DNA from: Candidatus Saccharimonadota bacterium
Lineage (GTDB): Bacteria > Patescibacteriota > Saccharimonadia > CAILAD01 > BJGX01
DNA length: 64,000 nt
Assembly: GCA_014191035.1 (NCBI GenBank)
Contig: BJGX01000002.1
Location: forward strand, 18,813-82,812
Direction of reading: 5' to 3'
Shown here piece by piece: positions 7,572 through 64,000 of this stretch. Below the pieces are notes generated by a model. The model was not told the DNA's origin, searched no databases, and saw nothing but the letters and a program-made list of their open reading frames with translations. Position numbers and translations under genes: made by a program. The first letter of the stretch is position 1; the number at the start of each line of letters is the position of its first letter.

Positions 7572-8482
7572 TTACGCTTTGGAGGGTATTTAAAAGTGGT
7601 TTTCGCAATACTTTCAGAAATGCTTGGTTAAGTACTGCCGCAACCGCAATAATGGCAGTAACTCTGTTAATTATGACCTTTTTTGCTTTTTCGATATTTT
7701 TTGTGAGATCTCAGCTTAATGAAGTTCAGCAAAAAATTGATTTAACTGTTTTTATTTCTGACGACGCTAAAGACGAGCAAATAAAAGCGCTGCAAAATAA
7801 AGTTTTGCAGTCGGGTGGAGTTGAATCTGTTGAATTTGTTTCAAAAGCAGACGCATTAAAGCGTTTAGAAAACAGTAGCGAAGAAGGAAAAAAATTGGCC
7901 AAATCAGCCACAGAAATTGGCAATCCATTGCCAGCATCTTTGGAAGTAAAGCTCGAAAAATTAGATGATATCGGAGGTATCAACAAGCAAATCCGCGAAC
8001 TGCCAGAGGCCGTTATAATAACCGAAACTAGCTACGATAGCCGCGACGACAATCGTAAGGGTGTAATTGAGAACGTAATTAAAATAAGTAATGGAGTAAC
8101 TAGGGTTGGTGCAATTCTGAGCATAGTCTTTTTAGTAATCGCGCTTTTAATTATTTTTAATACAATCAGAATGGCTATCTTTACTCGTCGAGAAGAGATT
8201 GAAATTATGAAGCTAGTAGGAGCAACTAAGTGGTTTATTCGCGGCCCATTTATAGTTGAAGGGTCAATGTATGGTGTTTTTGGTGCAACCATTGCAACAA
8301 TTGCCTTAATTCCTATCGGAAGAGTTGCTGGCCAGTTCTTAATAGACAAGTTTAACGCTGGCCAAGCGATGGCTTATTTTGGTACAAATTTCTGGCTAGT
8401 AGTACTCTGCATATACGCGCTAGGAATATTCATAGGTGCGGTTTCAAGTTGGCTTGCTATATCAAGACATTTAAAGCTCTGA
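7568..8482 (+). CDS. ftsX: Cell-division permease-like protein FtsX.
   Basis: 4-TM topology with a large extracytoplasmic loop between TM1 and TM2. Directly follows ftsE. Confidence 0.9.
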   Translation: MITLWRVFKSGFRNTFRNAWLSTAATAIMAVTLLIMTFFAFSIFFVRSQLNEVQQKIDLTVFISDDAKDEQIKALQNKVLQSGGVESVEFVSKADALKRLENSSEEGKKLAKSATEIGNPLPASLEVKLEKLDDIGGINKQIRELPEAVIITETSYDSRDDNRKGVIENVIKISNGVTRVGAILSIVFLVIALLIIFNTIRMAIFTRREEIEIMKLVGATKWFIRGPFIVEGSMYGVFGATIATIALIPIGRVAGQFLIDKFNAGQAMAYFGTNFWLVVLCIYALGIFIGAVSSWLAISRHLKL

Positions 8483-8540
8483 AAACCTCGCATTTGAAAT
8501 TAAATTATGTTATAATAGTTATGTTACGGAGGGTAATCGA

Positions 8541-9635
8541 TTGATCTTAAATAAAACAAAATCAGCATTAATAGCAACTACAATTTTGGCGCTAATTATG
8601 TCGCTGGTTTTTACTATTTCCAGACCGGCCAAGGCCGATCAGTTCGATGAGCAGATTGCTGCCCTAAACCGCAAGGTGCGCGATGCAACTGCAGTTGCAG
8701 ATGCTAAAAAATCTGAAGTCAATACGCTAAAAGGTAAAATTGCAAGTATTGAAGCTGAAATCAGTGCTGCTCAAAACCAGCTTGACTTAACAAATCTTGA
8801 AATCAAAAAAACCCAAGCAACAATCGAAAAAAATAATCAAGAAATGGAACGCCAAAAAGAAATTTTGAAAGAAAATCTCCGAATGATATACAAACAGGGC
8901 GAGATTAGCCCACTAGAAGTTGTGGCTTCTAGTAAAAATTTAAGTGATTTTGTTTCGCAACAACAATATCTTGGAGCCATCAAAAAGAAAGTTGACGACA
9001 ATTTAGACAAAATAGAGCAGCTAAAAAAAGAGCTTGACCAGAAGAAAGGTCAACTTAATGCTCAATCGTCACAGCAAAAAGAAGTAGTTGATGGTATCGC
9101 AGTAAAAAGAGCTGAGCAAGCATCGATATTGGCCAGAACTCAGGGTGAAGAAGCAAATTATCGCAATGTGATCAAAGAAGATAATGCAAGAATTGCAGAG
9201 CTAAAGCGCCAGCAAGCAGCTATTATTAGTTCATATTCATCGAATGTTCAATACGGTGGTACTGGAAGTTACCCCTGGGCCAATGTTCCATTCCCAAATA
9301 GCATGCCAGATCCTTGGGGGATGTATAAACGTCAGTGTGTAAGCTATACTGCCTGGAAGGTTGCCTCTTCTGGAAGGAATATGCCATACTGGGGAGGCCG
9401 CGGTAACGCCAATCAGTGGGATGACAATGCCAGAGCTGCTGGCATACCAGTCGATGGAAATCCTAGAGTAGGTGATGTTGCTGTCAACAATTCCGGTCCT
9501 TATGGTCACGTAATGTATGTTGAAGCAATTCTGGGCAACGGCAAGGTTCGGGTGAGCCAATATAACGCTGGATTCGACGGCCGATATTCGGTTAGTGATG
9601 TGACAATTGCCGGCTTGCAGTTTATACACTTTTAA
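8541..9635 (+). CDS. PcsB-like peptidoglycan hydrolase: signal peptide, long coiled-coil, C-terminal CHAP domain.
   Basis: TTG start with a GGAGGG SD. Coiled-coil heptads (residues about 40-230). CHAP Cys and His (CVSYTAW ... GHVMYVEA). Sits immediately 3' of ftsEX. Confidence 0.75.
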   Translation: MILNKTKSALIATTILALIMSLVFTISRPAKADQFDEQIAALNRKVRDATAVADAKKSEVNTLKGKIASIEAEISAAQNQLDLTNLEIKKTQATIEKNNQEMERQKEILKENLRMIYKQGEISPLEVVASSKNLSDFVSQQQYLGAIKKKVDDNLDKIEQLKKELDQKKGQLNAQSSQQKEVVDGIAVKRAEQASILARTQGEEANYRNVIKEDNARIAELKRQQAAIISSYSSNVQYGGTGSYPWANVPFPNSMPDPWGMYKRQCVSYTAWKVASSGRNMPYWGGRGNANQWDDNARAAGIPVDGNPRVGDVAVNNSGPYGHVMYVEAILGNGKVRVSQYNAGFDGRYSVSDVTIAGLQFIHF

Positions 9636-9645
9636 ATAATTATCT

Positions 9646-10869
9646 ATGAAAAAAGAACCAACCAATAAAAACTCTTTAATTACAAAGAAAAACGCCCTTG
9701 TTTTGGGAGTAGGTTTTTTGCTTGGAATATTTAGCTTCTGGCTAGTAGGGATAATAACCAGCCCTTCATTAAGTAAACAGAAGCTTGATACTACCTTACT
9801 TAATAAGGTTCAGTCTATTTTGCAAAACAAATACAATGGAGATATCGATTATCAAAAAATGTCTGAAGGAGCAGCCGCAGGTGCCGTTGCTTCCTTGGGC
9901 GACCCGTACACTGTATTTTTGGATGAAAAATCTAATAAGGAGCTAAATGATGATTTAGCAGGCGAGCTTTCAGGTATAGGCATTGAGGTTGGTCAAAAGA
10001 ATGACCGACTAACCGTTATCGCTCCAATCGATGGAACTCCTGCTGACAAGGCCGGCATACGCGCGGGGGATTATATTGCTGCAATTGATGGGGTTGATAC
10101 GAGAACTCTGACCATAGATGAAGCTGTCAAAAAAATACGTGGCGAAAAGGGCACCAATGTTAAATTGACTGTAGTGAGGGGTAGTGAATCGCCAAAAGAA
10201 ATAGAAATTACACGTGACTTAATCAGTGTTCCTAGTGTAACAAGCGAAATGAAGGCCGATGGCGTTGGATACATTAAGATACGTCGCTTTGGCGATGATA
10301 CTGCGCAAGAAGTTCGTAAAGCAGGCTTAACTCTAAATACTCAAGGGGCAAAAGTTTTAGTATTAGATGTAAGAGATAATCCCGGCGGTTATCTGCAGTC
10401 GGCCGTGGATGTTGCTTCTGAGTTTTATAGTGAAGGTGTGGTCGTTGAGGAGAGATCTCGAAACTCTAAGAATAAAGTAGATACAGCTCGGCCCGGAGGC
10501 GCATTAACAGACCTACCAGTAGTTGTTTTAATAAATGAAGGAAGTGCTTCAGCATCCGAAATATTAGCAGGCGCATTAAATGACAAGGATAATGCCATCT
10601 TGGTAGGAGAAAAATCTTACGGCAAGGGTAGTGTTCAAGAAGTTATCTGCTTAAACAATGTATTATTTACAAGTAGCTGTAAGGGTCCATCTCTGAAGGT
10701 TACTATTGCAAATTGGTTTACTCCTGCAGGAGTAAATATCAGTAAAGAAGGCATTAGACCAGAGTTTGAAGTTAAATTAAGTACTGACGATGCGAATAAC
10801 AATCGCGACCCTCAGCTAGATAAGGCCCTCGAGCTTGCCAAGCAAGAAATAAATAACTTTTTATATTGA
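9646..10869 (+). CDS. ctpA: C-terminal processing (tail-specific, S41) peptidase with PDZ domain.
   Basis: N-terminal TM anchor. PDZ segment (GIGIEVGQ...GDYIAAIDGV). S41 catalytic region (VLDVRDNPGGYL ... KSYGKGSVQ). Confidence 0.85.
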   Translation: MKKEPTNKNSLITKKNALVLGVGFLLGIFSFWLVGIITSPSLSKQKLDTTLLNKVQSILQNKYNGDIDYQKMSEGAAAGAVASLGDPYTVFLDEKSNKELNDDLAGELSGIGIEVGQKNDRLTVIAPIDGTPADKAGIRAGDYIAAIDGVDTRTLTIDEAVKKIRGEKGTNVKLTVVRGSESPKEIEITRDLISVPSVTSEMKADGVGYIKIRRFGDDTAQEVRKAGLTLNTQGAKVLVLDVRDNPGGYLQSAVDVASEFYSEGVVVEERSRNSKNKVDTARPGGALTDLPVVVLINEGSASASEILAGALNDKDNAILVGEKSYGKGSVQEVICLNNVLFTSSCKGPSLKVTIANWFTPAGVNISKEGIRPEFEVKLSTDDANNNRDPQLDKALELAKQEINNFLY

Positions 10870-10926
10870 CCTGCTGCAAAACTAAGAGCTATTATATAAA
10901 CTAATAATTAAGTTGGAGGGGGAGTT

Positions 10927-12576
10927 ATAAAAAAATCAAACACAAAATATATTTTTGTTACCGGCGGCGTAATTTCTGGTCTAGGCAAAGGAATATCTGC
11001 CGCCTCACTCGGTAAAATATTATCCTCTAGAGCTCTGAGGGTCACAATGCAAAAGTGTGATCCTTATTTAAATATGGATGCCGGCACGCTCAATCCCTCC
11101 GAGCATGGAGAGGTTTTTGTTACGTGTGACGGTGGAGAGACGGACTTAGATTTGGGTCACTATGAGAGATTTATCGATAGAGAACTAACAAAAAAATCAT
11201 CCACAATGAGTGGCAAGATATACTCCAAAGTACTTTCAGATGAGCGGAAAGGTTTATTTTTGGGAAAGACAATTCAAATTATCCCCCATATAACTAACGA
11301 AATTATGAATCAAATTATATCATCAGCAGATAACAGCGATGTTCATATAGCAGAAGTTGGTGGTACAGTTGGGGATTACGAAGCAATGGCCTGGATTGAG
11401 GCAATTAGACAAATGAAGCGAAAAGTTGGAGAAGAGAATGTTTTGTATTGTCATGTTGTCTACATCCCCTACCTTGGAGTTAGTAAGGAATTTAAAACAA
11501 AGCCAGCGCAGAATAGTGTAAGAGATCTAAGAGAGGCTGGTATACAGCCAGATATTTTGTTTGTTCGTTCGGATGAGCCTGTAAATGCTGAGGCTTTTGA
11601 AAAAATGAGTTTGTATTGTGATGTAGAAAAAGATGCGATTGTTGCATTGCCCAATGCAGTTAGCGTTTATGAGGTGCCTCTAAGGATGGAGGAGGGCGGT
11701 ATTGGTAATTATATTTGCTCTAGGCTTGAAATATCTTGCAGTAAGCCAAATCTTAAAGACTGGAGCAGTTTAGTAGATAAAATAAGATCAAACAAGCCAA
11801 GCATTACGATAGGTGTTATCGCAAAATACATGTCAAATGAAGATACTTATTTAAGTGTTTTTGAAGCATTGCGTGCTGCAGCTTGGCATCATAATCTTGA
11901 TGTCGAAATAATTTGGGTAGATTCAGAACGAATAGAACTAAGTAATAAAAATTTAGAAGATCTAGATGGCATATTGGTGCCTGGCGGCTTTGGTGTGAGA
12001 GGGGTAGAAGGCAAAATAGCTGCCTCAAGGTATGCAAGAAAAAACAACATACCATATCTCGGACTTTGTCTGGGGATGCAGGTTGCTGTTATTGACTTTG
12101 CTAGAGAGGTATTGGGAGATGAAGAGGCTAATAGTAGCGAGATGAATCCAGATGCAAAAAACAAAGTAATTTATATAATGCCTGATCAAATTAATGTTGA
12201 TCTTGGAGGAAGTATGCGTCTCGGGGACTATGAAGCAAAGCTTAACAAAAAGTCTAGATCCTACTTGGCCTATGGAAAAACTAAAATTATTGAGCGCCAT
12301 CGCCATAGGTATGAGTTTAATAATGACTATAGAGAAACCCTCGAGAAAGCTGGTCTGGTTATTGCTGCTACTTCAACTGATGGCAAGTTAGTTGAAATAA
12401 TTGAACATAAGGACCATCCCTTCTTTGTTGCGAGTCAATTCCATCCTGAATACAAATCTAGACCTGATAAGCCCCACCCATTGTTTAGAGATTTTGTAGC
12501 CTCTGTGAAGCACAGAAAGTCATTGCTCTCATCTAAATCCACCAACGGTACCATTGCACAAAAAAAGCCGCAATAA
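10927..12576 (+). CDS. pyrG: CTP synthase. The apparent start is non-ATG; the first in-frame ATG is at 11047.
   Basis: Conserved N-terminus KYIFVTGGVISGLGKGI is encoded in frame upstream of the first ATG, with a TAA at 10909-10911. The glutamine amidotransferase Cys region (GLCLGMQ) and C-terminal His are present. GGAGGGGGAG SD at 10914-10923. Confidence 0.8.
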   Translation: MKKSNTKYIFVTGGVISGLGKGISAASLGKILSSRALRVTMQKCDPYLNMDAGTLNPSEHGEVFVTCDGGETDLDLGHYERFIDRELTKKSSTMSGKIYSKVLSDERKGLFLGKTIQIIPHITNEIMNQIISSADNSDVHIAEVGGTVGDYEAMAWIEAIRQMKRKVGEENVLYCHVVYIPYLGVSKEFKTKPAQNSVRDLREAGIQPDILFVRSDEPVNAEAFEKMSLYCDVEKDAIVALPNAVSVYEVPLRMEEGGIGNYICSRLEISCSKPNLKDWSSLVDKIRSNKPSITIGVIAKYMSNEDTYLSVFEALRAAAWHHNLDVEIIWVDSERIELSNKNLEDLDGILVPGGFGVRGVEGKIAASRYARKNNIPYLGLCLGMQVAVIDFAREVLGDEEANSSEMNPDAKNKVIYIMPDQINVDLGGSMRLGDYEAKLNKKSRSYLAYGKTKIIERHRHRYEFNNDYRETLEKAGLVIAATSTDGKLVEIIEHKDHPFFVASQFHPEYKSRPDKPHPLFRDFVASVKHRKSLLSSKSTNGTIAQKKPQ

Positions 12577-52730: not shown

Positions 52731-54269
52731 ATGAATAAAAAACTAGTCCTTTCCAAATCCGAATATATGATGTATCTAAAGCACCCAGCCTACTTATGGA
52801 TTAAAAAGCACGATAAAAACAAGATTCCGCCAGTAAGTGCAGATTTACAGGCCATGTTTGATGCCGGAAATGAATTTGAACAATATGCCGAATCGCTTTT
52901 TCCCGATGGTGTAAGGGTGGGCTTTAATGACTATAACGAATATTTAAATATGCCTGCACGCACCCAAGAAGAGCTCGATAAAGGCACCAAAACTATTTTC
53001 CAGGGCCGATTCGAACATGAACAAACGACCTTTATTTGTGATGTTGTTCGCGTCATTGGTAAGAATGAAGTTGATTTGTACGAAATTAAGTCAAGCACCG
53101 GCGTGAAGCTGGAGCATATCTTGGATCTTGCTTACCAAACTACAGTTTTAGAAAATTGCGGCTATAGTGTTAATGATATTTATGTGGTGCATGTAGACAA
53201 TAGCTATGTACGAGCAGGCGAGATAGATCCAAAGCAAATTACTACCACCACCAACGTAACCGAAGATGTCAAAAAGGAGCTTGGCAGGACAAAACGAAAT
53301 ATCTTAGATGCAATTGCAGTTATGGAGCAGTCTGATATGCCAGATCCATCACCGGCCCGTTGTAAGCTAAATAGTCTTAAGGAATGGCTTGAAGTTTATA
53401 AAAACATTAAACCAATAGAAGAGGGTAGTATATATGAACTTTGCAGACTTAACGCTGATACCGTGCGTTTATTAGAGGAAGAAGGGGTTAGTAAGCTCAA
53501 AGATATTCCATTAAGCCTAATTGATAATGAAAAACAACGTTGGCAGCTAGAGGCACTAGAAAACGGTGAGCCAATTTACAATAAAGATAAAATCAAAAAG
53601 TTTTTAAGTAAGCTACATTACCCATTATACTTTTTTGACTATGAAACACTAAGCAGTTGCGTTCCATATTTTGATGGAACCAAGCCATATCAACAGATAC
53701 CGTTTCAGTATTCATTGCATGTTATAGAATCGCCTGGTGGCGAATTGAAGCATATGGGGTACTTGCAGGCCGACAACACAAACCCAGCCGAAGCTCTTAG
53801 TAAAACCCTTAAAGATCAAATCGGCACAACTGGAAGCATAATTGCCTGGAATATGAGCTTTGAAAAAATGTGCAATACCGCACTAGGCACTATGGCTCCA
53901 GAATACAAAGATTTTTATGAAGATCTTAATACTCGTATGGCTGATTTAATGATTCCTTTTAGTAAAGGTTATTATATAGATTCCAGTTTTCTCGGTAGTG
54001 CTAGTATCAAAAATGTCTTACCAGTATTGGTGCCAGAGCTAAGCTACAAAGATCTTGGTATTCAAGAGGGTGGAAGTGCCCAGCGAAGCTGGATGGACGC
54101 GGTTTTATACGAAAAGCGATCTGATAAAGATCAGGTACTTAAAGATCTCGAAGAATACTGCAAACTTGATACTTTAGCAATGGTAGAAATATTTAACTTT
54201 CTAACCAAGCTTGTGGCAGGCGAAGGCGGAAGTGTAGCTAAAGCCGAGCAACTAGGTTTGGGTATATAA
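52731..54269 (+). CDS. DUF2779-like protein with an N-terminal PD-(D/E)xK-type nuclease signature.
   Basis: VDLYEIKSS (hhhD-x-hE-x-K pattern) in the N-terminal third. Large C-terminal region of unknown function. Confidence 0.45.
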   Translation: MNKKLVLSKSEYMMYLKHPAYLWIKKHDKNKIPPVSADLQAMFDAGNEFEQYAESLFPDGVRVGFNDYNEYLNMPARTQEELDKGTKTIFQGRFEHEQTTFICDVVRVIGKNEVDLYEIKSSTGVKLEHILDLAYQTTVLENCGYSVNDIYVVHVDNSYVRAGEIDPKQITTTTNVTEDVKKELGRTKRNILDAIAVMEQSDMPDPSPARCKLNSLKEWLEVYKNIKPIEEGSIYELCRLNADTVRLLEEEGVSKLKDIPLSLIDNEKQRWQLEALENGEPIYNKDKIKKFLSKLHYPLYFFDYETLSSCVPYFDGTKPYQQIPFQYSLHVIESPGGELKHMGYLQADNTNPAEALSKTLKDQIGTTGSIIAWNMSFEKMCNTALGTMAPEYKDFYEDLNTRMADLMIPFSKGYYIDSSFLGSASIKNVLPVLVPELSYKDLGIQEGGSAQRSWMDAVLYEKRSDKDQVLKDLEEYCKLDTLAMVEIFNFLTKLVAGEGGSVAKAEQLGLGI

Positions 54270-57821: not shown

Positions 57822-58121
57822 TCAGTTCTGGTAAGAATGAGACTGAGAGAGGACGTCGCAGGAGTCCTGCAGTCTCTCAATCTGATACTTCATGTCTCTG
57901 TACAGGTAGACAACGCCACTGATGCAGCCAATCAGCATGGACACCAATGGGGCAGTATCCCAGAAGCTGACTTTTGTGTTGTCGGAGACCAGTTCGAGTG
58001 CGATTAGCACCATGAAGACGAACGAGATCATCCCCAGGGCCAGTACAGTCGAGAAGGCGTAGACAGCGAAAGACCGAGAAATGACGGACTTCCTGTCCCA
58101 GCCGAAGTACTTGTAGAGCAT
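57822..58121 (-). CDS. GC-rich small membrane protein (2-3 TM).
   Basis: GGAGG SD 6 nt upstream of the ATG at 58119-58121. About 52% GC versus the AT-rich surroundings. Confidence 0.5.
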   Translation of the reverse strand: MLYKYFGWDRKSVISRSFAVYAFSTVLALGMISFVFMVLIALELVSDNTKVSFWDTAPLVSMLIGCISGVVYLYRDMKYQIERLQDSCDVLSQSHSYQN

Positions 58122-58225
58122 GTGGCACCTCCAGTACCAGCGCAACCAACCTGGTTACGGATTGAAATTATACTACATATGGTTACTTTTGTCAATGCTA
58201 AATATGTTTTTGTTATAATATAATC

Positions 58226-58852
58226 ATGAAAATTATCGTCTTTGGTGCTAGTGGCAAAACCGGTCTAGAAGTATGCAAGCTGGCCTCAAAAAAGGGCTAC
58301 GATGTAATTGGGTTTGATATTCATAAAAACGACCAGCTAGTGGGGCTTAATAATTTTAAATTCATCAAGGGCAGTGTATTAAATGCCGATGAGGTCGATC
58401 AGGCAATGAGCGGGGTAGATGCAGTCGTCTCCGAGCTTGGGGTTAAAATCGGCAGCAAATTACCGCTACTTTCTGAGGGTAACAAAAACATAATCTCGGC
58501 AATGCACAAGCATAAAATAAAGCGGCTCATAACCCAATCAGCCTTTGGTGCGCTCGAATCTTATAAAAAGCTACCATTTTATTACAAAATAATTCACAAA
58601 CTCTTGCTTGGGCCAATGTCCAAAGACAAAAACATCATGGAGCGCGAGGTGCAAAAATCTGATATCAACTTCACAATTATCCGCCCAGTTAGACTCACCA
58701 ATGGTCCAGCCAAAGGCAAGTTCAGAACAGGGGATACCAATCTCAAACTCGGCCTTAACCCTAGAGTCTCCAGAAAAGACGTTGCCATATTTATTATGGA
58801 TGAGCTAGAAAATAACAATTTTATTAAAAAAGCCGTTACAATTACTTATTAA
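58226..58852 (+). CDS. NAD(P)H-binding NmrA/atypical-SDR-like protein.
   Basis: Rossmann motif IIVFGASGKTG. Short 208-aa form lacking the SDR YxxxK in its usual position. Confidence 0.7.
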   Translation: MKIIVFGASGKTGLEVCKLASKKGYDVIGFDIHKNDQLVGLNNFKFIKGSVLNADEVDQAMSGVDAVVSELGVKIGSKLPLLSEGNKNIISAMHKHKIKRLITQSAFGALESYKKLPFYYKIIHKLLLGPMSKDKNIMEREVQKSDINFTIIRPVRLTNGPAKGKFRTGDTNLKLGLNPRVSRKDVAIFIMDELENNNFIKKAVTITY

Positions 58853-58853
58853 T

Positions 58854-59183
58854 ATGGAGGATTACCAAAAAGGCAGCATAGTATTCGACCGTGCGGTAGA
58901 TATTGTCCGCAAGTGGGATGAAGTTAATAAAAGTCATGTCAGCCCTATAGGCTTAATGTTTGTTATGCGTATTGGCTATGCAATGGCACAAAACATTATG
59001 GATCAGCTTCGCGAAAACCACATTGTGCGTATGGAATTTATTAAGCATGACGATGGCGAGGAAGGAATCAAATACCATATTATTACCAAGGCTGAGTTAG
59101 CCAAAAAGTTCCCGGACGAGGAGTGGTACGAGCCAAAACACGAAAGTGGGTTTGATTATGATTTGGCAAAGGAGTCTTTATGA
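58854..59183 (+). CDS. FtsK-gamma-like winged-helix DNA-binding protein.
   Basis: Colinear with the E. coli FtsK gamma domain as recalled: FDRAVDIV...SHVS...L.F.MRIGYAMAQNI.DQL.ENHIV versus LFDQAVQFV...[30 protein letters not shown]. Translationally coupled to neighbours on both sides. Confidence 0.55.
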   Translation: MEDYQKGSIVFDRAVDIVRKWDEVNKSHVSPIGLMFVMRIGYAMAQNIMDQLRENHIVRMEFIKHDDGEEGIKYHIITKAELAKKFPDEEWYEPKHESGFDYDLAKESL

Positions 59184-59821
59184 AATCAGTAAATATAAAT
59201 TTAGGCAAAATAAAAAATGCTCAAAAAGATCTAAATATCGGAATTGGCGACCTATCTTACTGTTTAGTCATTGGCGGCTGGGCATCAGGCAAATCTTTTT
59301 GGCTGGACAACATTTATAATCAACTTAAAGAACAAATGAGCCCAGAAGAATTGGGCTTTGTGTTACTAAATGTGTCGGGTGGCGCTGAAGAAATAAACAA
59401 TGAGTATATTATCGAAGAACACATTAGCAACGAATGCTTAGGCCCGCTTGCCGAGTACGCCGAGCTTGCTAGGCAGCGTTCGAATGGCGACGAAGCTAAA
59501 GACAGGCACATCATCGTTCATATCGAGGGAAATGATCTGGCTTTAACAAATGAACGAAGCAAATATTTTAATTCGATTACACTACTTGCAAGCAATGCAA
59601 AGAATGCAAATATGTCATTAATAATCGTCGACAACCGAGCAAACGAACAGCAAACACCACCCGAAATTACCAAATTATGCAGGCTAATTGCATTATTTAG
59701 TAGCAACAATTATTTACCAAATGCCAAGTATATAGGGGCAGCTAAATCAAAGTTGGATAAATTCGAAAAGCAAATTATTTTGAATAATGAGACTTATATT
59801 TTAGAAAGGCTCAAAACCTAG
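59180..59821 (+). CDS. Miniature P-loop ATPase, FtsK/SpoIIIE RecA-fold-like.
   Basis: Walker A LVIGGWASGKS. Walker B-like IIVHIEG. Distal LIIVDNRANEQ resembles the FtsK HLVLATQRP segment. Confidence 0.5.
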   Translation: MKSVNINLGKIKNAQKDLNIGIGDLSYCLVIGGWASGKSFWLDNIYNQLKEQMSPEELGFVLLNVSGGAEEINNEYIIEEHISNECLGPLAEYAELARQRSNGDEAKDRHIIVHIEGNDLALTNERSKYFNSITLLASNAKNANMSLIIVDNRANEQQTPPEITKLCRLIALFSSNNYLPNAKYIGAAKSKLDKFEKQIILNNETYILERLKT

Positions 59822-59871
59822 CGCCAACAGATATAAAATGCTATGATTATTTTTAAATTAATGAGGTTATA

Positions 59872-62800
59872 ATGTCAGCCACAAACAGCCCTGAAGAAAA
59901 AAACATGGAGAGAAGAATAAAAACTACAAAAGTAGTCTACCCACAACTTTATTCTTATGTCTTGCCAGACTTAACAGCAAATGAAGGTTCTCAAAAAATA
60001 GGCTACACCGAACGTAAAGATGTAGATGAGCGAATTCGCGAACAGACGCAAACGGCAGCAATGAAGTTGCGTTACGACAAACTCTGGAGTGCGCCTTCTT
60101 TTTTTACGAATTCAAATACAGATTTTACAGATAAGATTTTCCATCAGTTTCTGGTTAGAAATGGTGTAGAAAAAAGAGATGATCTGGGAACGGAATGGTT
60201 TTATTTCAACGGCACACCGGAAAAATCAAAACAACTTTTTGATTCATTCAGAAACGAAGGTTATGCCGCTCTCCAAAATAATAATGGTAAAAAACCTTAC
60301 ACCTTAAGAGAAGAACAAGAAGCAGCGGTAAGTCAGGCTATAGAGTATTTTAACAACTATACAAATGGAGAATTCCTGTGGAATGCCAAGCCTAGATTTG
60401 GCAAGACGCTTGCGACTTATGACCTTGCCAAAAGACTAGGGGCTCAAAAGGTGCTTATAGTTACCAATAGGCCAGCAATTGCCAACTCGTGGTTTGATGA
60501 CTTTGAAAATTACATCGAGGATTTTTATTTTATATCCGAAACATCATCACTAGCAGAGAGGGGCACCTTAACCAGAGCGCAGTATGTTGATTCGGACGTT
60601 GAAAAACCACAAATAACTTTCTTGTCACTTCAAGACCTAAAAGGCTCCAGGTTTTTTGGAGGAAAGCATGATAAGTTGAAATGGATTGCTGACCTCGAAT
60701 GGGACTTGCTTGTAATTGATGAGGCGCATGAAGGGGTCGATACTGGTCGCACAGATGCAGCATTCGATGTCGTGAAGCGCAGCCATACTTTGCATCTTTC
60801 AGGTACACCATTCAAGGCACTAGCAAATAATAAATTTCCAAAGGAAGCCATATTTAACTGGACATATTTGGATGAGCAAAAAATAAAGAAATTAGAAATA
60901 TCAGAAAATGAAACTGGTGACCATACTGACCTCCCAGATTTAAAACTTTTCACTTACAGAATATCGCAAATGATAGCTGAACAAGTTAATGAAGGAATAG
61001 AACTAGAAAACGAGTCACGAGATTACGCCTTTGATTTAAATGAATTTTTTGCGACTGAGAACCAAAAATTTGTTCGAGAACAAGACGTTAGACAATTCCT
61101 GAAAAACCTCAGTGCGAATAAAAAATATCCATTTTCTACACCCGAACTTCGAGACGAACTACGCCATACGTTTTGGTACGTAGGCAATCGTGTAGATTCA
61201 GTTAAGGCCCTTGAAAAGTTACTAGCTGATGATGATGTTTTCAAAGATTATAAGGTTGTAGTGGCAGCCGGTGACGGCAAATCATTTGATGAGGAGGAAA
61301 CTGACTTCGGAGCCAATGAAAAGTCATTTGACAAAGTCAAAAAAGCCATTAAAAATCACCCAAAAACAATTACATTATCATGTGGCCAACTAACCACTGG
61401 TGTGACCATAAAAGAATGGAGCGCAGTATTAATGCTTACAGACATTAAATCGACTCCAGTCTATATGCAGGCGGCATTTAGGGCTCAAAATCCTTACAAG
61501 TACTATGAAGACGGCATGCTCAAAGTTAAAGAGTCAGCCTATCTTTTTGATTTCGCACCAATACGTGTATTGGAGATGTATGATGAATTTGCAAATGGAT
61601 TAAACCCTGATGCTACCAATGGCCTGATCACAGAGGAGGACCGCAAAGGTAACATCCGAGAACTGTTAAATTATTTCCCAGTTATATCTGAAGACACTGA
61701 AGGACAAATGGTCGAGCTAGATGCCGAAAAAGTATTGACCTTCCCGAATGCTCTCGCCGCTACCGAAATTGTCCAAGCACGCTTCATGACCAATTTGCTA
61801 TTCAATGACAACATTAAAGGGGTCTTTCATTTTCCTAAAGAAGTCGAAGATATACTCGATAAAATGCCTGTTGAAAAGAACAAGCGTGTTGAAGTGTCCA
61901 AGCAATCACTTGACCTAGAAGATGCACGAAAGGTTGAGCAAGATAAACAAGCTAAAATTAGCGAGAATACTGGCGTCATATTGGGCGAAAAGATTTATCG
62001 AGCCAATATTGATAGAGTTGTAGACAATGTTTTAGATCAAGCAACGCCTGAAGAAACCATAGACATGCTGCCTGAAAAGGTAGAAGCCCTGGTAGAGGCG
62101 CCTATAGCCAAACTAAAAGAACAATATAAGCTAACTGCCACCGAAACAGATGAATTACGCAAAGAAACAGCCGAAAAGATCAAGATTGTTGTATCAGAAT
62201 TTGAAAATAGTGATGATAAAGATCCAGATACTTTAAAACAAAGCCTTGCTAATGTTATTGAACACGATTTGGTGCAGGCAAAAGTGGAGCAACAAGAAAC
62301 CAAAGCCGTAGAAACAGTACAAAAATCTAAAGAAGAAGAGGTGCGCGAACACCTGCGTGCCTTTACTCGCACAATTCCAATGTTCGTAATGGCAAATTCT
62401 TCACGTGATACGATTACTATAGACAACTTTGACGAGCAAATAAGCGATGAAGATTTTATCGACTTAACAAATATTACCAAGGAAGAATTCCATAAGCTCC
62501 GTGACGGTTTTGATTATTCTGATGATAACGGTGAGCGCCAGCACTTTGATGGTGTGTTTCACAAGTACAAGTTCAACGCATCTATAGCAGAATTTGTGTC
62601 TGAAAAACAAAAACGAGCTAACTATTTCGAAACAGATGATGATATTTTTGAATTAATTCCTAATCAAAAGAATAATCAAATATTTACACCCCGCAAAGTT
62701 GTGAAGATGATGATTGATGGGCTCGAGAAAGAACAGCCGGAGCTATTTAAGCGAACCGACAGTACATTTATTGACTTATATATGAAATCAGGCATGTATG

Positions 62801-64000
62801 TAACAGAAATAGTTAAAAAGCTGTTTGCTGGCACTCGGCATAATTACAGCACCGACAAAGAATGCCTCAAGCATATACTAGAGAACCAAGTGTATGGCTT
62901 GGCGCCTACTGGTGTGCTGCATGGCATCACTAAAAGTTATATACTAGGATTTGATGTAGATCATAATATAAGTAGTAGAAACTTTGTGCAACACGACTTA
63001 CTGCCAGAGGCCAAAGCCGGCACTGCAGCACAAAAAATCGCAGATTTATTTAACAATGGAGATATTAATATGAAATTTGATGCAGTTGTAGGTAATCCGC
63101 CTTACCAGGTGGCGCTATCACAAAATAAAATGTCACGTAGCATTTATCCGGACTTTGTGCGAGCCGCGAAAAAAATTTCGGAGACTTTTTCGTTTGTGAT
63201 GCCTGCTCGCTGGATGAGTGGCGAGAATGGGCCTTATCGAGAAACACAAGGATTTGTAGACGAAATGCTAGATGGCAGTCATTTAAAATCATTTACATTA
63301 TTCCCAGATTCTAGTGAGCTATTCAAGGGCGTTGACATAAAAGGAGGTGTTTGTTATTTCGTATGGGACAAAAATTATAGCAAGGATTTAGTGGATTATA
63401 CACTGAGCGAACGAGGTAAAGACGTAACCGCAATTGTTCCATTCAAAATTAGTGACAATATCATCGTGCGTTTTCCGCAACTTACAAATATAGTTCAAAA
63501 AATTTCAAGGAATGCACCTAGTGATTCCATGAAGACACTGGTATCTTCATGGAATCCGTTCGGATTCATTTCAGATTTGTTCGTAAAAAATAATGAGGGC
63601 GTTCGTAGGATTAGCGAAAAGAAAATGGATACTGATGACTATAAGGTTATTGGCCTTTTAAAAGGAAGGCGTGTATACCGCTATATACCGAATGATGAAC
63701 TTAAGAAGAATAGAATTGGCGCTAAGTCATGGAAAGTATTTGTTCCAAGAGCAAATGGTAGTGGAGTATTTGGGGAGGTTTTTAGTACACCGATGCTCGG
63801 TGTACCGATGCTCGTATGCACTGATACTTTTTTACAAGTAGGTGAGTTCGACAATGAATATGAGGCAAATAGCGTATTGACGTATGTAAAAACAAAGTTC
63901 TTCAGGGCAATGGTAGGGGTGAAAAAAACAGCAGTATTTAACTATAAAGATGCTTTTACTTTCGTACCTCAACAGAATTGGACGAATAAATCCGACATAG
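59872..64000 (+). CDS. Single-polypeptide restriction-modification-like enzyme (Type ISP-like): PD-(D/E)xK nuclease, SF2 DEAH ATPase, gamma-class N6-adenine MTase (NPPY). The 3' end lies beyond the window.
   Basis: Frame is open from the ATG at 59872 to the window end. N-terminal VLPD-x14-ERK. Helicase motifs I (KPRFGKT), II (VIDEAHEG), III (LSGTPF), V (GQLTTGV) and VI (QAAFRAQN). MTase motif I-like DLYMKSGMYV and motif IV VVGNPPYQ. Confidence 0.75.
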   Translation, partial: MSATNSPEEKNMERRIKTTKVVYPQLYSYVLPDLTANEGSQKIGYTERKDVDERIREQTQTAAMKLRYDKLWSAPSFFTNSNTDFTDKIFHQFLVRNGVEKRDDLGTEWFYFNGTPEKSKQLFDSFRNEGYAALQNNNGKKPYTLREEQEAAVSQAIEYFNNYTNGEFLWNAKPRFGKTLATYDLAKRLGAQKVLIVTNRPAIANSWFDDFENYIEDFYFISETSSLAERGTLTRAQYVDSDVEKPQITFLSLQDLKGSRFFGGKHDKLKWIADLEWDLLVIDEAHEGVDTGRTDAAFDVVKRSHTLHLSGTPFKALANNKFPKEAIFNWTYLDEQKIKKLEISENETGDHTDLPDLKLFTYRISQMIAEQVNEGIELENESRDYAFDLNEFFATENQKFVREQDVRQFLKNLSANKKYPFSTPELRDELRHTFWYVGNRVDSVKALEKLLADDDVFKDYKVVVAAGDGKSFDEEETDFGANEKSFDKVKKAIKNHPKTITLSCGQLTTGVTIKEWSAVLMLTDIKSTPVYMQAAFRAQNPYKYYEDGMLKVKESAYLFDFAPIRVLEMYDEFANGLNPDATNGLITEEDRKGNIRELLNYFPVISEDTEGQMVELDAEKVLTFPNALAATEIVQARFMTNLLFNDNIKGVFHFPKEVEDILDKMPVEKNKRVEVSKQSLDLEDARKVEQDKQAKISENTGVILGEKIYRANIDRVVDNVLDQATPEETIDMLPEKVEALVEAPIAKLKEQYKLTATETDELRKETAEKIKIVVSEFENSDDKDPDTLKQSLANVIEHDLVQAKVEQQETKAVETVQKSKEEEVREHLRAFTRTIPMFVMANSSRDTITIDNFDEQISDEDFIDLTNITKEEFHKLRDGFDYSDDNGERQHFDGVFHKYKFNASIAEFVSEKQKRANYFETDDDIFELIPNQKNNQIFTPRKVVKMMIDGLEKEQPELFKRTDSTFIDLYMKSGMYVTEIVKKLFAGTRHNYSTDKECLKHILENQVYGLAPTGVLHGITKSYILGFDVDHNISSRNFVQHDLLPEAKAGTAAQKIADLFNNGDINMKFDAVVGNPPYQVALSQNKMSRSIYPDFVRAAKKISETFSFVMPARWMSGENGPYRETQGFVDEMLDGSHLKSFTLFPDSSELFKGVDIKGGVCYFVWDKNYSKDLVDYTLSERGKDVTAIVPFKISDNIIVRFPQLTNIVQKISRNAPSDSMKTLVSSWNPFGFISDLFVKNNEGVRRISEKKMDTDDYKVIGLLKGRRVYRYIPNDELKKNRIGAKSWKVFVPRANGSGVFGEVFSTPMLGVPMLVCTDTFLQVGEFDNEYEANSVLTYVKTKFFRAMVGVKKTAVFNYKDAFTFVPQQNWTNKSDI

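Follow-up and report, generated by a model that had tools for sequence, protein, structure and literature searches.

What is a stand-alone relative of the FtsK gamma domain doing directly upstream of a restriction enzyme, encoded as a gene of its own and followed by a miniature P-loop protein? The question is raised by a locus in a 64-kb window (the whole stretch of DNA analysed here) from a Candidatus Saccharibacteria metagenome-assembled genome (MAG), in which open reading frame (ORF) A (58854..59183, plus strand, 109 aa), a stand-alone gamma-like protein with a conserved acidic C-terminal tail, is followed by ORF B (59180..59821, plus strand, 213 aa), a P-loop protein having only the beta domain of FtsK/SpoIIIE, and then by a single-chain restriction-modification (RM) enzyme. 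FtsK-family pumps serve in chromosome segregation, conjugation, secretion and virus packaging. We found that A and B make up a conserved two-gene module belonging to the FtsK/SpoIIIE family, which is unusual in its split architecture and strikingly associated with diverse restriction cassettes, in what is so far a narrow lineage. The reading that we favour, although only tentatively, is that the pair constitutes a split, degenerate and probably non-motor FtsK-derived accessory, common to exchangeable restriction cassettes in a clade of freshwater Saccharibacteria.

A and B are genuine genes that overlap and evolve under purifying selection, with pairwise ratios of nonsynonymous to synonymous substitution rates, calculated against relatives, of 0.10–0.22 for A and 0.18–0.48 for B. 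The stop codon of A and the start codon of B share the four nucleotides ATGA (59180..59183, plus strand), an overlap of the kind that gives translational coupling and that is also present in two related loci (L014 and L015). An earlier note on this DNA had described the pair as coupled translationally upstream of the RM enzyme; this holds for A with B, whereas B and the RM gene lie 50 nt apart, with a promoter-like box in the gap.

Relationship of ORFs A and B to FtsK

Homologues of ORF A fell into 14 clusters with 72–100% identity, and a protein 100% identical to it carries the name ‘hypothetical protein LBMAG34_2020’. When A and B were scanned directly against Pfam, PHROGs, NCBIfam and PADLOC, the top Pfam match of A was FtsK_gamma (E 1.1e-4), covering profile positions 27–49 only and scoring below the curated cutoff for membership of the FtsK gamma domain family PF09397 (22.3 vs 30.6 bits). 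A profile of 13 A homologues gave only seven matches in PDB, among them FtsK gamma 2j5p (E 0.14) and the XerD-gamma fusion 5dcf, with the alignment to 2j5p being colinear (FDQAV..V / RIGY..A..I...L...IV). Comparison of the A family, using hhalign, with a gamma alignment built from the E. coli 2j5p fragment and the gamma domains of four relatives (P0098, P0046, P0100 and P0060) gave a match of 92.9% (E 3.6e-7, residues 10–59, 45 columns). These results indicate that the A family is homologous to FtsK gamma at the domain level, though without Pfam-threshold membership, and they bear out the colinearity with gamma, including the RIGY motif, that had been proposed for A from its sequence.

The gamma-like segment of A spans residues 10–59 (58881..59030, plus strand; FDRAV...RIGYAMAQNIMDQL...IVR) and has a net charge of about 0. 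Its loop between helices 1 and 2 (H1–H2) is extended by a five-residue insertion, KWDEV, and is invariant in the family, for which the invariant stretch runs from D16 to V24. The C-terminal half, residues 60–109 (59031..59180, plus strand), is predicted to form a beta-hairpin followed by an acidic and aromatic tail, FPDEEWYEPKH.S.FDYDLAKE, with a net charge of -7 and with F86, P87, W91, H96, S98, F100 and Y102 being invariant; the isoelectric point (pI) of the whole protein is 5.2. An AF2 model of low confidence (mean predicted local distance difference test score, pLDDT, of 55) had helices at residues 3–24 and 31–55 and then strands at 56–64 and 70–78, which is compatible with a winged helix, and a Foldseek search with this low-confidence model gave no match with E below 0.2.

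The residues of helix 3 with which E. coli FtsK gamma reads the FtsK-orienting polar sequences (KOPS) are N1296, R1300 and E1303. In the alignment to 2j5p (13 residues set against RIGYAMAQNIMDQ) these positions were not conserved in the A family, where Asn is replaced by Ala or Gly, Arg is variable and Glu is replaced by Asp or Asn. Since A is acidic and the KOPS-reading residues are absent, DNA reading of the KOPS type by A appears unlikely. Besides reading DNA, A may just as well serve as a protein adaptor.

For ORF B, the direct scans returned only generic or sub-threshold P-loop matches, namely AAA_16 (E 0.045), FtsK_SpoIIIE (E 0.17) and fragments of EccC and PtuA. A word-indexed search yielded a B family of 15 clusters, all of 210–251 aa except for one 121-aa fragment and all lacking Pfam domains. 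The profile of this family, A1, was matched among 1.84 billion representatives by 73 proteins at E up to 1e-3, with three of them at E up to 1e-30. Pfam FtsK_SpoIIIE was present in 54 of the 63 relatives scanned, PHROG 1358 (‘FtsK/SpoIIIE-like’) was matched by 58 and a ‘terminase’ PHROG by 40, and many of the relatives were proteins of 190–240 aa with a canonical GxTGSGKS motif near the N-terminus. An alignment of 31 such canonical mini-FtsK relatives, A4, matched the B family in hhalign at 99.8% (E 1.7e-30, 198 columns) and in turn matched the FtsK motor structures 2iuu and 2ius at E 1e-26, over the beta (RecA-like) core only; it also matched conjugative coupling proteins and the packaging ATPase B204 of STIV. 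The intermediate family was needed because A1, when compared directly with PDB sequences, gave a spurious match to I-CreI and found FtsK only at E 2. The case for B as a divergent FtsK/SpoIIIE-family P-loop protein is accordingly strong, although the link is transitive through A4. The profile searches thereby found both an FtsK_gamma relationship for A and a P-loop relationship for B, the absence of which would have spoken against the initial description of the pair.

The motifs of B could be placed through the same intermediate. Its Walker A sequence GGWASGKS (59273..59296, plus strand; G32...G37 K38 S39) is invariant in all 15 homologues, with G32, G33, S36, G37 and K38 as invariant positions, fits GxxGxGK[ST] and aligns to GTTGSGKS of FtsK. 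The Walker-B-like sequence HIEGND (59519..59536, plus strand) has E116 at the position of the Walker B Asp of FtsK and an invariant G117 at that of the catalytic Glu, as seen from the aligned segments VVVDEfAD in FtsK, IHIEEcD in A4 and VHIEGnD in B; B consequently has VHIEG in place of a Walker B motif hhhhDE with its catalytic Glu. The distal motif NRAN aligns to ATQRP of FtsK, the Arg matching the ATQRP arginine, and the FtsK-specific segment preceding Walker A is kept as NLGKIKN..KDL...DLS.CLVIGG. No alpha domain is present in B, all 213 residues of which align to the beta core only. The motifs recognized in the earlier note were thereby upheld, as was its view that B is far too short for a full FtsK motor; of the miniature P-loop ATPase that it described, the P-loop of FtsK/SpoIIIE type stands, while a motor is improbable with the catalytic Glu being an invariant Gly. 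From these features we infer that B binds nucleotide and is a poor hydrolase, which would suit a switch or a scaffold better than a motor in miniature. No transmembrane region is annotated for A or B, and neither protein has an effector domain (nuclease, toxin or membrane-disrupting) according to Pfam, PHROGs, NCBIfam and PADLOC.

Taken against the FtsK/SpoIIIE translocases (2ius/2iuu, and 2j5p for gamma), B thus shares the LG...DL...hhhhG segment before Walker A, Walker A itself, the equivalent of the Walker B Asp and the equivalent of the ATQRP Arg, and A shares the gamma pattern FDQAV...RIGY..A..I...IV. They differ from these translocases by the absence of the alpha domain and of any membrane or linker region, and in that the gamma-like part is not the C-terminus of an ATPase chain but a separate protein encoded upstream of the ATPase. 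B differs further by its Glu-to-Gly exchange and by a direct score below the Pfam threshold, and A by its KOPS positions and its extra acidic tail of 50 residues.

Pairing, restriction cassettes and a private junction box

The order of A and then B, with the ATGA overlap, was found in the window and in L014 (87–90% identical) and also in L015, there with a B of another lineage, which is 90% identical in DNA to the B of L016 and 57% identical in protein to that of the window. In L015 (740-1783) the A-like sequence forms the last ~110 residues of a 347-aa ORF. Pfam matched nothing in its N-terminal ~235 residues, and either the two parts are fused or an internal (GTG) start has been overlooked. 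In L012, L010, L020 and two contigs without DNA, A is instead followed by a protein of 267–269 aa. A family alignment of five such proteins matched only FtsK in PDB (2ius, E 4e-5) and matched A4 in hhalign at 79% (E 1.5e-5), and the proteins lack the Walker A lysine, their P-loop thus being dead. With a single sequence of the 269-aa protein, BLAST and hidden Markov model searches were negative and hhalign gave 3%, the relationship emerging only with the family alignment. A hence repeatedly precedes a gene encoding an FtsK-beta-like protein, as judged from these alignments, in either a nucleotide-binding or a dead-P-loop version. Since a fused mini-FtsK with beta before gamma also exists (P0098, 298 aa, with Pfam FtsK_SpoIIIE and FtsK_gamma), the A–B pair of the window would be a split and inverted form, which agrees with the earlier observation that the order of gamma and ATPase is reversed relative to FtsK.

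Both genes were also found in decayed forms. A frameshift splits A into ORFs of 65 and 47 aa in three contigs (L019 1602-1926, L020 69-399), and in L017, where B (93-458) starts 93 nt from the contig end, it is cut to 121 aa directly before a set of genes for a MazG-like protein, McrB_N-HNH and an SLFN-type helicase.

The association with neighbouring genes was read from about ten contexts in closely related organisms. What lies upstream of B varies and includes a superoxide dismutase (SOD), Pirin, the combination of a short-chain dehydrogenase/reductase (SDR) with A, a 360-aa minus-strand gene and a 139-aa gene of unknown function. Downstream of B and on the same strand, restriction or defence genes followed in six of six informative arrangements, with five types of cassette. 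The window, L014 and L024 have SDR and A upstream, with the Type ISP-like enzyme following in the window, L014 diverging 22 nt after B and L024 ending about 180 nt after it. With SOD upstream, L016 carries a homologous ISP-like enzyme, a 320-aa protein and a DpnI-like protein, and L001-4 carry an HsdR-like protein (836 aa) and an HsdM/S fusion. In L005-7 and a second contig, the 360-aa minus-strand gene lies upstream, and one minus-strand gene and then a classical Type I HsdR/M/S system lie downstream; in L025, Pirin lies upstream, and a Type III-like Mod, a ResIII helicase and a TnsA-like nuclease lie downstream. B, with or without A, thus lies at a constant site immediately 5′ of varied restriction and defence cassettes. 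Two candidate contigs of sample 3300059473 may represent several such arrangements in one genome. The contexts of A complied with this picture: in L021, A alone immediately precedes a Type I system, an SDR gene, a frameshifted A and a 269-aa protein are followed by Vsr and two Dcm methylases nearby, and A with a 267-aa protein precedes MazG, McrB_N-HNH and an SLFN-type helicase. Defence genes adjoin in every informative context, and of the two readings offered in the earlier note, that of an accessory module of the adjacent defence gene is the one that we favour.

The cassettes change at a sharply defined place. L001 and L016 are 92% identical through a histidine kinase gene, SOD, B and the following leader up to the restriction start codon, past which they differ for 6–7 kb and then re-converge, and L014 ceases to be homologous to the window at 59843, 22 nt past the B stop codon. 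The junctions of B with the cassettes align on a box with the consensus CTRGCGCC-N16-17-TAYRAT, the second half of which is a TATAAT-like hexamer. In the window the box reads CTAGCGCC-N16-TATGAT (59818..59847, plus strand), overlaps the stop codon of B and is promoter-like, and beyond it relatives carry different restriction cassettes. In the relaxed form GCGCC-N16-17-TAYRAT it had one match in the 64-kb window, at 59821-59847, as compared with 0.21 expected by chance, and every match in the 25 fetched loci was at a border of B, in most of the lineages. In the sequences examined the box is thus private to this gene and, as its matches there are restricted to the borders of B, it is not the general promoter of the organism. 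It lies downstream of B, before the cassette, in the window, L025 (1657-1686), L015 (2446-2476), L024, L001-4 and L016, and upstream of B as well in L001-4 and L016 (L001 3052-3082 and 3817-3847; L016 7235-7265 and 8002-8032). In L001 and L016 the GCGCC-containing 7-mer is in tandem, CTAGCGC CTAGCGCC, and in L021, having A only, a related CCACCAACAGATAAAAGCAG-TATAAT is found ahead of hsdM. The box, which is not palindromic, has the appearance of a promoter or operator common to B and the following restriction cassette, and its presence before the cassette as well as before B in L001 and L016 suggests that the two may be co-regulated.

Between the box and the differing restriction genes there is also a conserved leader of ~100 nt (L001 3840-3945, L016 8025-8080, L015 2470-2525, L005 6959-7060). 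It holds an upstream ORF (uORF) whose product begins with MKNYYRIMLG and whose end meets or overlaps the start codon of the restriction gene; the expression of restriction could be controlled in this way by a leader peptide or an RNA element. In the window there is only an AT-rich uORF of nine codons (59843-59872) with a TAATG overlap, which may be due to chance.

To the right of the restriction cassettes, a repeated intergenic element, CTACTATAACTGCCGCCCGCCGC, was seen at the borders of single genes (L001 8722-8748 and 9690-9716; L016 13720-13742, 14873-14895 and 16753-16775). It coincides with the points at which L001 and L016 re-converge, also borders a 1.9-kb insertion in L016, and may be another type of promoter or a recombination hotspot.

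Both families are small, with about 15 clusters each among 5.8 billion proteins, all of them metagenome-derived sequences. No relatives of A or B were found in 185,579 GTDB representative genomes, nor in IMG/VR, phage records or plasmid collections. The narrowness of the families, together with the frameshifts in A and the truncated B of L017, mark A and B, as far as these sequences tell, as dispensable and fast-evolving in the manner of defence genes.

Other genes of the window

The RM enzyme following B (59872..64000, plus strand) is cut by the end of the window and comprises at least 1376 aa, combining a ResIII superfamily 2 (SF2) helicase with an Eco57I-type N6-adenine methyltransferase in a Type ISP/IIG-like arrangement. 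It matched Pfam ResIII and Eco57I and the PADLOC Type IIG model, and has an NPPY motif in the methyltransferase region. Its classification has no solved Type ISP homologue to draw upon, there being no match to PDB sequences at E up to 1e-3. In L016 a full-length homologue (8077-12297, 1406 aa) has an extra MUG113/T5orf172-like domain at the N-terminus, the spot expected for the nuclease in a Type ISP-like layout. Residues 777-871 of the enzyme also gave a weak and probably spurious Pfam match to the Thoeris inhibitor Tad5 (E 0.001).

On the other side of the pair, an NAD(P)-binding SDR-type gene (58226..58852, plus strand; Pfam NAD_binding_10, E 5.6e-36) has its stop codon 1 nt before the start of A, and the same adjacency of SDR and A was seen in two further contexts (L019 and contig ANapHNK0). 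This gene intervenes between the pair and a GC-rich stretch at 57.8–58.15 kb (GC 0.51 vs about 0.39 around it), which holds a minus-strand gene, so that the pair does not, as had been stated, begin right after a GC-rich insertion. The stretch is a self-contained small membrane-protein gene with a hydrophobic ORF of 107 aa (57822-58145, minus strand), a perfect sigma-70-type promoter, TTGACA-17-TATAAT (12 of 12 positions, 58195-58167), and a terminator hairpin with a T-run (57802-57775). As the alignment of the window with L019 runs across it in a single block, with a 99-aa minus-strand gene at the matching place in L019, it is not a recent insertion. A DUF2779-domain protein of 512 aa (52731-54269) is encoded a few kb further upstream, beside HAD, TMEM175-like, GGDEF and Pirin genes. 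Across the loci and the window, the neighbourhoods repeatedly contain genes for Pirin, SOD, SDR and ferric reductase.

Possible functions and competing explanations

Under the favoured reading of an FtsK-derived accessory, A would be a gamma-like winged-helix adaptor with an acidic docking tail, and B a beta-domain-only subunit that binds nucleotide and probably has weak hydrolysis. B might oligomerise in an ATP-dependent manner on DNA or on a translocating restriction enzyme, and A, where present, could dock through its tail onto the beta-like partner and target it to DNA or protein. Their joint action would precede restriction and could consist in the engagement of incoming DNA, for instance, or in the gating of neighbouring restriction enzymes of helicase type. 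Complex formation, engagement of DNA and any effect on restriction are thus proposed steps, and several observations weigh against the scheme. DNA binding by A is doubtful in view of its pI of 5.2 and a gamma-like half without net positive charge. Translocation by the module is also unlikely, given that the catalytic Glu is missing from B and Walker A from the 269-aa partner. Neither A nor B strictly needs the other, since L001-7, L016 and L025 have B but no A, and L021 and L011 have A but no beta-like gene. Furthermore, the models of both proteins were poor (pLDDT about 50–55), with fold searches being uninformative, and no PADLOC model matched A or B beyond a generic P-loop match. Finally, the association of A and B with restriction genes is one of genomic position, in closely related organisms with a common, rearranged neighbourhood, and with contexts from such close relatives an inherited position by a defence hotspot could mimic a functional link.

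That last point leads to a different account, which we consider possible although on the unlikely side, namely that A and B have a lineage-specific and unrelated role, such as that of a regulatory ATPase with its adaptor, and merely form the fixed left edge of a defence hotspot, at which natural transformation followed by homologous recombination exchanges one cassette for another. The 92% identity of L001 and L016 that breaks exactly at the restriction gene start and returns 6–7 kb later would be in keeping with this, as would the recurrence of Pirin, SOD, SDR and ferric reductase genes and the finding that B diverges about as fast as neighbouring orthologues. It fits less well that the upstream neighbour of B changes while the class of its downstream partner is constant, that A alone behaves alike in L021, that the private box lies in the promoter regions of both B and the cassette, and that the two families, in contrast to the core flank genes, are very narrow and often pseudogenised. 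Should the link be functional, a bolder version is conceivable, to which we assign a low probability: B with its private box promoter, and sometimes A, would then be a platform for exchangeable restriction cassettes, supplying a promoter and a universal FtsK-derived cofactor behind which promoterless cassettes of RM or defence genes, whatever their type, replace one another. This would give the naturally competent Saccharibacteria an integron-like logic without an integrase, in which a nucleotide-binding, non-hydrolysing mini-FtsK and a gamma-like adaptor gate the restriction of incoming DNA or join in cassette capture. It is also unlikely, if slightly less so, that A and B, or B alone, form a small defence or abortive-infection system of their own, clustering with RM genes only through the aggregation of defence islands. 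They do always occur in defence contexts and are narrow, fast-evolving and dispensable, and FtsK/HerA-type ATPases are components of several defence systems (PMC10853773). Yet neither has an effector domain in any of the four collections scanned, PADLOC gave nothing but the generic P-loop match, and B alone, with 213 aa and an impaired Walker B, is unlikely to be a complete system.

A mobile origin had been put forward in the earlier note, as the remnant of a conjugative translocase. In a wider form, the pair would be a decayed FtsK-like translocase derived either from an actinomycete TraB-type conjugation protein or from a phage FtsK-like or packaging ATPase. The A4 relatives do match the FtsK/SpoIIIE-like (58/63) and ‘terminase’ (40/63) PHROGs and are 24–30% identical to FtsK-like proteins of Mycobacterium and Bacillus phages, A4 matches coupling proteins and STIV B204, and Saccharibacteria live on Actinobacteria. 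We nevertheless regard such an origin as improbable, because A and B had no matches in phage, plasmid and IMG/VR collections, no integrase, relaxase, Rep, Spd or capsid gene was seen among the annotated neighbours of the window or the related loci, and no arrays of clt-, KOPS- or TRS-like repeats (TRS, TraB recognition sequence) or flanking inverted repeats were found in the window around the pair, with the only tRNA lying 41 kb from it. Purifying selection and intact small proteins across lineages are also not to be expected of debris.

Very improbable, in our estimation, is a role of A, together with B, in switching on XerD-type recombination outside the septum, such that cassettes integrate or excise at dif-like sites. 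This would be akin to the activation of XerCD by isolated FtsK gamma or by XafT of phage TLC. The H1–H2 loop of A, extended and invariant, is the counterpart of the XerD-contacting loop in FtsK gamma. The XerD-gamma fusion 5dcf was among the few PDB matches of the A profile, and cassette content changes immediately past a fixed junction. Dif-like sites, however, numbered two in the window as compared with 0.78 expected, neither of them at the locus, although the dif of this lineage may differ. In addition, no tyrosine recombinase was seen in the contexts read, loci with B only are equally variable in cassette without any A, and the junction motif is promoter-like, unlike a 28-bp Xer site.

Among known systems, the short (about 190–240 aa) FtsK/SpoIIIE-like proteins of metagenomes and phages (PHROG 1358/3551) come close to B, which is of the same size, is likewise beta-only with Walker A near its N-terminus, and matches their profile over its full length. 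Such proteins are annotated as ‘FtsK-like DNA translocase’ in Mycobacterium and Bacillus phages. They have GxTGSGKS and a Walker B with EE or DE, whereas B has GGWASGKS and EG, is without detectable phage homologues and sits in a chromosomal defence context. Similarly, no matches of A or B in IMG/VR or phage records point to a setting like that of the PRD1/STIV-type packaging ATPases, and the neighbours are cellular and RM genes. Streptomyces TraB, from the Actinobacteria that host Saccharibacteria, has an FtsK-type ATPase and a gamma-like winged helix-turn-helix (HTH), as A and B do together, but it is a large, membrane-anchored single chain of plasmids and actinomycete integrative and conjugative elements (AICEs), with a C-terminal winged HTH reading 8-bp TRS repeats at a clt locus, while A and B have no annotated transmembrane region, nearby repeat array or mobile-element context. 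As in the case of A, controller (C) proteins are small HTH-type proteins encoded just upstream of restriction genes beside a conserved box in the promoter region; those are Xre-type HTH dimers acting on palindromic C-boxes, however, whereas A is gamma-type, acidic and absent from many loci having B with RM genes. The comparison that fits the favoured accessory reading is with the ‘HerA/FtsK capture’ systems and DndH, for which comparative genomics has led to the proposal that FtsK/HerA domains and HTH partners, with the ATPase taken from different sources, were recruited to restriction modules (PMC10853773). A and B likewise combine a P-loop protein of the FtsK/HerA class with an HTH partner, coupled to restriction modules by adjacency and a box rather than by fusion. 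As a rule, a captured ATPase is tied to one particular nuclease architecture, by fusion or in a fixed operon, whereas here a free-standing mini module precedes many complete RM systems, and the Walker B of B suggests that it is no active pump.

The locus represents a minimal, split and probably non-motor version of the FtsK family, made up of a 109-aa gamma-like protein and a 213-aa beta core, which, in a lineage that is naturally competent and uncultivated, accompanies at least five architectures of restriction or defence genes. To our knowledge, recruitment of the family to defence has so far been proposed from comparative genomics only. Even if the link with restriction is one of position only, a well-defined defence hotspot is still marked by this locus, with the junction motif as its diagnostic feature. 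A functional link would make the pair a generic accessory of restriction systems, or a platform for their cassettes, and offer a small system in which to study a gamma domain and a beta core when apart. It would also help to explain the management of restriction repertoires in ultra-small epibionts, which take up DNA.

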